A program made the translations under genes and the position numbers. A stretch of DNA of 24,609 nt from an uncultured Clostridia bacterium (lineage in GTDB: Bacteria; Bacillota; Clostridia; Oscillospirales; Ruminococcaceae), in contig CALMXN010000117.1 of the NCBI GenBank assembly GCA_937871145.1, forward strand, positions 1 through 24,609. The letters run 5' to 3'. Below, piece by piece: positions 14,258 to 14,368 of the stretch. Below the pieces are notes generated by a model. That model made no database searches. It worked only from the letters and a program-made list of their open reading frames with translations, and was not told where the DNA came from. The number at the start of each line of letters is the position of its first letter. Within the stretch, counting starts at the first letter, position 1.

Positions 14258-14368
14258 GAGCTGGACCGAAAAGGGAGCTTGTTTTACTCTGACCGCTTGA
14301 TGAGTAAAATTCACGGTTGACATTTATGCTATACAAAATCGTATAGTATGAGGCAGAAAATTTCTGCC
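14258..14368 (+). ncRNA. Candidate cis-acting structured RNA (four hairpins, one a box C/D K-loop) upstream of flgE
   Basis: H1 AGC..CC-GAAAA-GG..GCU (14259-14279); H2 UUUUACUC/GAGUAAAA (14282-14309) with CUGA and UGAUGA; H3 14324-14351; H4 GGCAGAA/UUCUGCC (14352-14368). Folded by eye, no covariation data. Confidence 0.55.

Follow-up and report, generated by a model that had tools for sequence, protein, structure and literature searches.

A conserved three-way-junction RNA spanning the TIGR02530 stop codon upstream of flgE in Bacillota

In a flagellar operon of a Clostridia bacterium, the gap in front of the hook gene flgE is unusually long and is rich in potential RNA structure, and the question that it raises is what this RNA is and which factor it may serve. 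The window, meaning the whole stretch of 24,609 nucleotides that was analyzed, carries a fliK-like gene, flgD, a gene of the TIGR02530 family, flgE, flbD, motA, and motB, in this order. The TIGR02530 gene (Pfam Flagellar_put, PF12611; positions 13853-14257, plus strand) scores 89 bits against the NCBIfam TIGR02530 cut-off of 83.2 bits, and it is located between flgD (13377-13817) and flgE (14403-15944). The start region of flgE (14388-14405, plus strand) comprises the Shine-Dalgarno (SD) sequence AAGGAG at 14388-93 and the ATG codon at 14403-05. The 63-residue ORF found 3' of flgE (16010-16201) belongs to the FlbD family (Pfam PF06289, E 1.4e-21).

The 145-nt spacer between the TIGR02530 gene and flgE had been described, in an original prediction made from the nucleotide sequence, as the longest spacer of the operon, which is true among the co-directional flagellar ORFs listed from 5596 to 19000. 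It had also been drawn as four hairpins, H1 to H4, and RNAfold gives four as well (spacer z = -3.3). The features on which that drawing relies are present at the positions given for them: the stem of H2 at 14282-89/14302-09, the CUGA box at 14289-92, the UGAUGA box at 14298-303, and the two GA dinucleotides of H1 at 14264-65 and 14275-76. The original prediction interpreted H2 as a box C'/D' K-loop and H1 as a K-turn-like element, within a protein-binding RNA that would regulate flgE in cis. Comparison with homologous loci changes the outline of this element, and it also changes the list of its probable partners.

Architecture of the element between TIGR02530 and flgE

The tail that follows H2 (ACGGUUGA) is the reverse complement of UCAACCGU, which is found in the final codons of the TIGR02530 ORF, and the element in the window is therefore a three-way junction of the helices P1, P2, and P3 (14233-14328), spanning the TIGR02530 stop codon. 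Folding of 14230-14330 gives this three-way junction as the minimum-free-energy structure (-28.2 kcal/mol, z = -3.9), and none of 200 shuffled sequences is as stable. The hairpins H1 and H2 of the original prediction, which correspond to P2 and P3, are indeed conserved, but the bounds assigned to the element missed the closing helix P1, which lies partly inside the TIGR02530 ORF. The 5' strand of P1 (14233-14247, plus strand) is inside this ORF and is part of the minimum-free-energy fold. Its core (14240-14247, UCAACCGU) covers Ser-Thr-Val codons, and the preceding nucleotides 14233-39 are a species-specific extension. The 3' strand of P1 (14313-14328, plus strand) is composed of the core 14313-20 (ACGGUUGA), the bulged nucleotide C14321, and the extension 14322-28, such that P1 in the window is extended to 15 bp, formed by 14233-47 with 14313-28. 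The TIGR02530 stop codon, UAA at 14255-57, is held by the variable junction strand J1/2 (14248-14257, plus strand).

The second helix, P2 (14258-14280, plus strand; H1 maps to 14258-80), consists of a covarying outer stem, a bulge, an inner stem, and a loop. The outer stem is formed by 14258-62 with 14276-80. In the window, the bulge is GGA (14263-65) opposite G14275, the inner CC/GG stem is formed by 14266-67 with 14273-74, and the terminal loop is GAAAA. The third helix, P3 (14281-14310, plus strand; H2), has a stem of 8-9 bp, with covariation at all eight stem pairs, and a 12-nt loop, UGACCGCUUGAU (14290-14301), with a GA..G..GA pattern.

The remaining hairpins, H3 (14324-51) and H4 (14352-68), occupy 14324-14368 of the plus strand, between the motif and the flgE SD, and are species-specific. 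A unit of four hairpins, as originally proposed, is not what the homologues preserve: H3 and H4 lie outside the conserved element and are found only in the window and in a 98%-identical relative (L002), and the other members of the genus have TIGR02530–flgE spacers of 86-104 nt without H3/H4. The insertion measures about 45 nt, and H3 overlaps and competes with the P1 extension at 14322-28. An assignment of H4 as a terminator was rejected, as it has no U-tract, and so was an assignment of H3/H4 as a repeated mobile element, as the genome contains no further copies. The hexamer TTGACA (14317-22) was considered as a -35 box and likewise rejected; in relatives, the SD follows it within about 10 nt. 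TTGACA is separated by 19 nt from the sole -10-like hexamer of the window. The conservation of TTGACA is explained by the pairing of P1 and not by a promoter.

Covariation and distribution among homologues

The spacers between TIGR02530 and flgE were compared for 13 relatives and 80 further genomes of the Oscillospiraceae type, and the conservation and covariation of H1 and H2 are evident in these orthologous spacers as compensating changes. In an alignment of 90 sequences fitted to the model, P1, P2, and P3 all covary. In this alignment, 92.6% of the cells are paired, compared with 62.9% in shuffles and 33-46% with slid partners, and there are 549 double-change cells, compared with 158 in shuffles. 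Compensatory changes occur in 20 of the 21 pairs, including every pair of P1, of the P2 outer stem, and of P3. All eight pairs of P1 have double changes in the 90 sequences, also at synonymous/third-codon positions, and the P1 strands of other lineages remain complementary with other sequences (GACGGA/UCCGUC, UACCGUAAU/AUUACGGUA, GGCGCCGU/GCGGCGCC, and CUGUG/CACAG). Because the 90-sequence alignment is fitted to the model, RNAalifold was also run on an independent, plain MAFFT alignment (30 sequences), from which P1, P2, and P3 are recovered, with compensatory changes in 16 of 20 pairs. Of 86 loci, 72 have the entire 5' strand of P1 within the ORF. In 49 of the 86, the stop codon is immediately adjacent to the start of P2 or overlaps it.

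The conserved bases are concentrated in P2 and in the loop of P3. The GGA bulge of P2 is near-invariant (85 of 90 sequences) and its 3' side is a single purine (A in 71 sequences and G in 19). The CC and GG strands of the inner stem are near-invariant too (88 and 84 of 89 distinct sequences, respectively), and the terminal loop of P2 is variable. Position 14262-14276 behaves as a base pair throughout the family (C-G 30, U-A 21, U.G 11, A-U 3, C.A 23). The P3 loop is 12 nt long in 73 of 90 sequences, with the pattern N1-G2-A3-N4-Y5-G6-A7-N8-N9-G10-A11-N12. Among these 12-nt loops, G2 and A3 are present in 72 of 73, and Y5, G6, G10, and A11 in all 73; the N1.N12 combination is mostly non-Watson-Crick (U.U 19, C.C 13). 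In the genus to which the window belongs, loop position 7 is C and not A. The junction strands vary in both length and sequence (J1/2, 3-19 nt; J3/1, 0-7 nt). At 14281 of the window, contigs from three soil metatranscriptomes, which derive from a relative that is about 96% identical, lack one nucleotide of the U-run that separates P2 from P3, which fits a J2/3 of variable length. Six loci (L213, L214, L216, L218, L220, and L222) combine an intact P2 with very short P3 loops (CGACA, CGAAA, GAGACUG, UGCUACUUG); these variants score poorly with the model and may be a subtype. A possible additional helix, which would pair the Ile-Asp codons of the TNID motif with the bases past GGAGGUC, was also considered and rejected, as there is no covariation between the third base of the Ile codon and its proposed partner (T/A 13, A/A 8, T/G 4, C/A 4, C/G 2).

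For the searches, a covariance model built from 12 sequences (R1) and a broader model (R2) were used. R1 has one match in the window (14236-14322, 93.4 bits), which is also the only match in the whole genome, and the R2 score of this copy is 75.4 bits. With R1, the motif is found directly 3' of TIGR02530 in Oscillospiraceae loci. The TIGR02530 gene is present in 121 of 399 sampled Clostridia genomes. In a set of 30 Clostridia loci, the RNA lies just past this gene in 27 with E 0.01 or better and in 28 when E is relaxed to 10, and in a further class-wide set of 40 loci it is found in 33. When 151 whole Clostridia genomes are searched with R2, matches are found in 47, all beside TIGR02530. The TIGR02530-positive genomes missed in this sample are two, one at a contig end and the other scoring 22.6 bits with the filters off, and the RNA is present in none of the seven flagellated genomes of the same sample that have no TIGR02530 gene. 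In two such TIGR02530-less genomes that were inspected, flgE comes about 30 nt after flgD. A sample of 151 genomes taken across the phylum has the RNA in 88 and TIGR02530 in 105; here, all RNA-bearing genomes have TIGR02530 except one (G466), whose flgE is cut by a contig end, and 12 of 14 TIGR02530-positive loci without a nearby filtered match score E 0.01 or better with the filters off.

The motif thus follows TIGR02530 in almost every genome examined, in Clostridia and in other classes of Bacillota, and this co-occurrence could reflect the inheritance of one module, made of the gene plus the spacer. Outside the Bacillota, annotations of Geobacter and Bdellovibrio are reported to include TIGR02530. 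The similar sequences that the original prediction placed at the same position in other Firmicutes do exist and are found across the Bacillota. The absence of a named Rfam family was also rightly anticipated: there is no Rfam 15 match in the window at gathering thresholds, a permissive Rfam 15 scan of 14150-14480 returns noise only (E above 1), and an Rfam search of 13 representative loci gives no match at E 0.1 or better. Neither a description of the motif nor a role for TIGR02530 was found in the literature, and a 2026 preprint enters the TIGR02530 family as 'function unknown'. The element is an uncatalogued, phylum-wide RNA motif of about 85 nt. One 41.6-bit copy (L227, G500:C1:1813358-1813438) has no obvious flagellar ORF adjoining within 1.5 kb, and an SD-like sequence, GGAGGGGG, is located about 150 nt downstream of it.

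Second copies, ribosome-binding sites and transcripts

The position of the motif next to TIGR02530 could in principle be that of a tail of this gene or that of a leader of the next one, and genomes with a second copy are informative in this respect. In one Clostridia genome, a second copy (L177:1985-2070; G131:C6:45784-45869) precedes a second flgE paralogue, encoding 450 residues. No TIGR02530 gene lies upstream of this orphan copy, and the DNA before it is non-coding for about 270 nt; no part of its P1 is coding, and the SD is found 3 nt past P1. In other classes, all ten two-copy genomes examined have one copy after TIGR02530 and before flgE and the other copy between a rod gene and an FlgG-like gene. 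At the one two-copy locus that was checked, the downstream ORF is FlgG by its TIGR02488 score (305 bits, cut-off 252.75), and the ORF on the other side is FlgF-like. The second copies before a flgG-like gene come from 12 loci (L193, L195, L196, L199, L200, L203, L204, L207, L209, L210, L226, and L229), in most of which the motif lies between a rod gene and flgG; the exceptions are L203, for which no upstream rod ORF is seen, and L204, for which the downstream ORF is not FlgG-like. Because second copies precede a flgE paralogue or flgG, the motif is a leader and not merely a tail of TIGR02530. This agrees with the original prediction of a cis-regulatory RNA before flgE: the element is conserved and structured, and it is very probably cis-regulatory.

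The distance to the ribosome-binding site differs between lineages. In most relatives and loci, the flgE SD is 18-50 nt past P3. In the window, 55 nt with two extra hairpins lie between the motif and the SD, and across this gap with H3/H4 it is less obvious that the motif would directly occlude the ribosome-binding site. In many lineages, UC comes directly after the GGAGG of the flgE SD (for example, at L113, L080, and L156), which holds for 23 of 32 flgE SDs compared with 2 of 184 other GGAGG sites at the same loci. The GGUC so formed is complementary to the near-invariant GACC of P2, and an alternative pairing that hides the SD is therefore possible in these lineages. The window and its genus do not have this GGUC/GACC complementarity (window SD AAGGAGUG, P2 loop GAAAA).

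Transcripts that cross the TIGR02530–flgE junction are present as metatranscriptome contigs in the three soil datasets mentioned above (relative about 96% identical); these are assembled contigs, which carry no 5'-end or processing information. The RNA run of the closest strain also consists of assembled contigs, with a gap over 14020-14506, and has no bearing either way.

Candidate partners, rival explanations and related systems

The junction of the motif is variable and its conserved bases are on the distal parts of two helices, and the effector of such an RNA is therefore most likely a protein. The product of TIGR02530 is most likely this effector, as we infer from the gene that the motif accompanies. 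In the AF2 model of the TIGR02530 protein, the residues from about 50 to 134 are at a pLDDT around 90. When this model is compared by VIA-align, the top 18 matches are all RelE, ParE, HigB, YafQ, or YoeB (Z 4.7-6, residues 50-122), and phage T4 RegB is matched with a Z of 3.9; the fold match is only moderate, with Z below 8. Sub-threshold Pfam matches to REGB_T4 (E 0.039) and DUF4258 (E 0.18) fall on TIGR02530 residues 46-74, at the invariant FSKHAxxRxxxR. A Foldseek search of the PDB with the model gives no match below E 0.7, and a profile search of PDB sequences with TIGR02530 gives no relevant match. These comparisons give moderate support to a predicted RelE/ParE-like fold for the TIGR02530 protein, in which His, Arg, and Lys residues are invariant. 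Not all proteins with RelE/ParE folds bind RNA.

The explanation that we prefer, to which we give about an even chance, is that the motif is a protein-recognized cis-regulatory leader of hook and rod genes, with the TIGR02530 product as the best candidate for the effector. In this mechanism, P1 pairs the last TIGR02530 codons with the tail just upstream of the flgE ribosome-binding region, and the motif would act in cis as the leader of the hook gene and, in other classes of Bacillota, also of the distal-rod gene flgG. By binding or cutting the leader, the TIGR02530 product would control the amount of hook or rod protein. To reach the end of the TIGR02530 ORF, a ribosome has to open P1 together with the 5' half of P2, so that the fold and upstream translation are mutually exclusive, and this exclusivity would add translational coupling. 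A more specific version, which we consider possible but doubtful, is that TIGR02530 is an RNA binder or cutter of the RelE fold that restrains the flgG and flgE leaders and is removed, for example by flagellar type III export, once the basal body is ready. If this were true, it would constitute a post-transcriptional, FlgM-like checkpoint on rod and hook synthesis across the Bacillota.

The same observations can be read without any protein partner. It is conceivable, if rather unlikely, that the leader is a device made of RNA only, in which P1 and P2 mask the initiation of flgE until the upstream ribosome opens them, or in which the structure is a processing site and 5' stabilizer, through which the flgE mRNA would outlive the message of the upstream genes. 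The location of the P1 5' strand inside the ORF and of the stop codon at P2, in the fractions of the 86 loci given above, is in agreement with this, as are the P1 3' strand that starts 0-3 nt after P3 with the SD close behind and, in many lineages, the GGAGG+UC SDs that are complementary to GACC of P2. Coupling or stabilization needs only helices, however, and not a bulge and loop bases that are near-invariant throughout the phylum; in the copies before flgG and before the second flgE, P1 is entirely non-coding, and the GGUC/GACC complementarity is missing in the window and its genus. A compact, conserved three-way junction right before a ribosome-binding site, as widespread as many riboswitch classes, also brings to mind a riboswitch, for example for a second messenger of motility, or a self-cleaving ribozyme that separates flgE from the upstream message. 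Riboswitches combine an expression platform with a conserved pocket for the ligand, which is usually found at a junction. Here, the junction strands are variable and the conserved bases are on distal helix elements, there is neither a terminator nor a conserved anti-SD, no Rfam riboswitch or ribozyme model matches, and the strict tie to one protein gene is more typical of protein-binding leaders, which makes a riboswitch or ribozyme improbable. Among protein partners other than TIGR02530, CsrA could use the GGA of the P2 bulge and the GGA of the SD as two sites, as in flagellin leaders; the bulge GGA is near-invariant and CsrA is encoded in the genome of the window. CsrA is nevertheless equally present in flagellated genomes without the RNA (G114 and G082), GGA occurs in the P3 loop of some members only, and the conserved GGA is in a bulge between helices and not in a hairpin loop, such that CsrA is a highly improbable partner.

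The partner named in the original prediction was an L7Ae homologue of the YbxF/YlxQ type, bound to H2 as a box C'/D' K-loop and to H1 as a K-turn-like element, in an RNP that would control flgE. A K-loop is formed by tandem sheared G.A and A.G pairs, which close a terminal loop atop a regular (NC) stem, and in a K-turn two helices are joined by a 3-nt bulge and, directly after it, tandem G.A and A.G pairs. The CUGA...UGAUGA pattern from which the prediction started is present in the window, but the pattern alone is at chance level, with 0.56 matches expected per window and at least one match in 42 of 100 shuffles of the window; as it is no rarer than chance, only its conservation gives it weight. 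The homologues do not keep the box C (RUGAUGA)/box D (CUGA) consensus, and what they conserve of it is limited to the two GA dinucleotides: of 89 distinct sequences, 70 have C as the first base of CUGA, the bases at the U.U position vary, and the next pair covaries freely. The sequence pattern of a K-loop, from which sheared geometry is not readable, fits the window and the 72 of 73 12-nt loops that are flanked by 5'-GA and GA-3', and it does not fit the loops of 5-11 nt. The mostly non-Watson-Crick N.N closing of P3 is as in the non-canonical stem of box C/D K-turns, and an L7Ae-family gene is found in the genome of the window (G000:C205:13957-14217) and in 17 of 21 relatives, which also favors this proposal. 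The tandem GA is lost, however, in the short loops of homologues: there are P3 loops of 9-11 nt without the 5' GA in one subgroup of Oscillospiraceae and of 5-7 nt in other classes (CGACA, CGAAA, GAGACUG), and short loops without the 5' GA cannot form the tandem sheared pairs. The Y-G-A bases, which are the sole loop bases kept in every form examined, are not a feature of K-loops. The K-turn drawing of H1 does not survive the comparison either, as the family has a 3-nt GGA bulge opposite one purine, and as the tandem G.A would use A14276 and so break U14262-A14276, a position that behaves as a base pair. The L7Ae homologues occur in relatives both with and without the motif, and the motif tracks TIGR02530 instead. 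As to the bacterial partners, PMC3884654 reports that YbxF does not bind K-loops, and the title of Baird et al. 2012, as cited in PMC3884654, says likewise of YlxQ. The conserved RNA is probably not an archaeal-type K-loop bound by L7Ae, and control of flgE by an L7Ae-type RNP as originally proposed has very little likelihood. With archaeal box C'/D' and H/ACA K-loops, the motif shares a loop that would be closed by N.N, G.A, and A.G on a regular stem; it differs from them in that the tandem GA is not present in all homologues, in that an extra conserved Y-G-A is inside the loop, and in that it belongs to a bacterial mRNA, as one arm of a three-way junction, with no guide function.

A leader recognized by the TIGR02530 product would have several known counterparts. 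In the CsrA-FliW system, which acts on hag of Bacillus subtilis and other Firmicutes, a leader with GGA by the SD also controls a flagellar structural gene post-transcriptionally, and its small protein partner, to which the candidate partner of the motif may be likened, is linked to the assembly status of the flagellum. Unlike this system, the targets here would be flgE and flgG and not flagellin, the RNA is a covarying three-way junction, and its distribution follows TIGR02530 and not CsrA. The autogenous leaders of ribosomal-protein genes and of phage T4 RegA/RegB, which act at ribosome-binding sites, are similar in that a structured RNA lies by the ribosome-binding site and a small basic candidate protein, which may bind or cut this RNA, is encoded adjacent to it; the TIGR02530 protein is weakly similar to phage T4 RegB. 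The difference from autogenous leaders is that the RNA overlaps the 3' end of the ORF of the candidate regulator and would control the next gene, and that distant copies precede flgG. The flagellar 5'-UTR motifs of Rfam, Termite-flg and flg-Rhizobiales, are conserved structures with no known mechanism. They are likewise located upstream of flagellar genes, but they differ from the motif in taxa and architecture, and neither gives an Rfam 15 match.

Flagellar assembly is controlled transcriptionally via FlgM and sigma-28, and flagellin is controlled translationally via CsrA and FliW; we know of no equivalent control for the hook and distal-rod subunits in Gram-positive bacteria. The motif described here is a concrete, testable candidate for such control, and a likely role is thereby proposed for the function-unknown family TIGR02530/PF12611. 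It also provides an example of an RNA helix to which the final codons of the preceding gene contribute, with covariation at synonymous sites.
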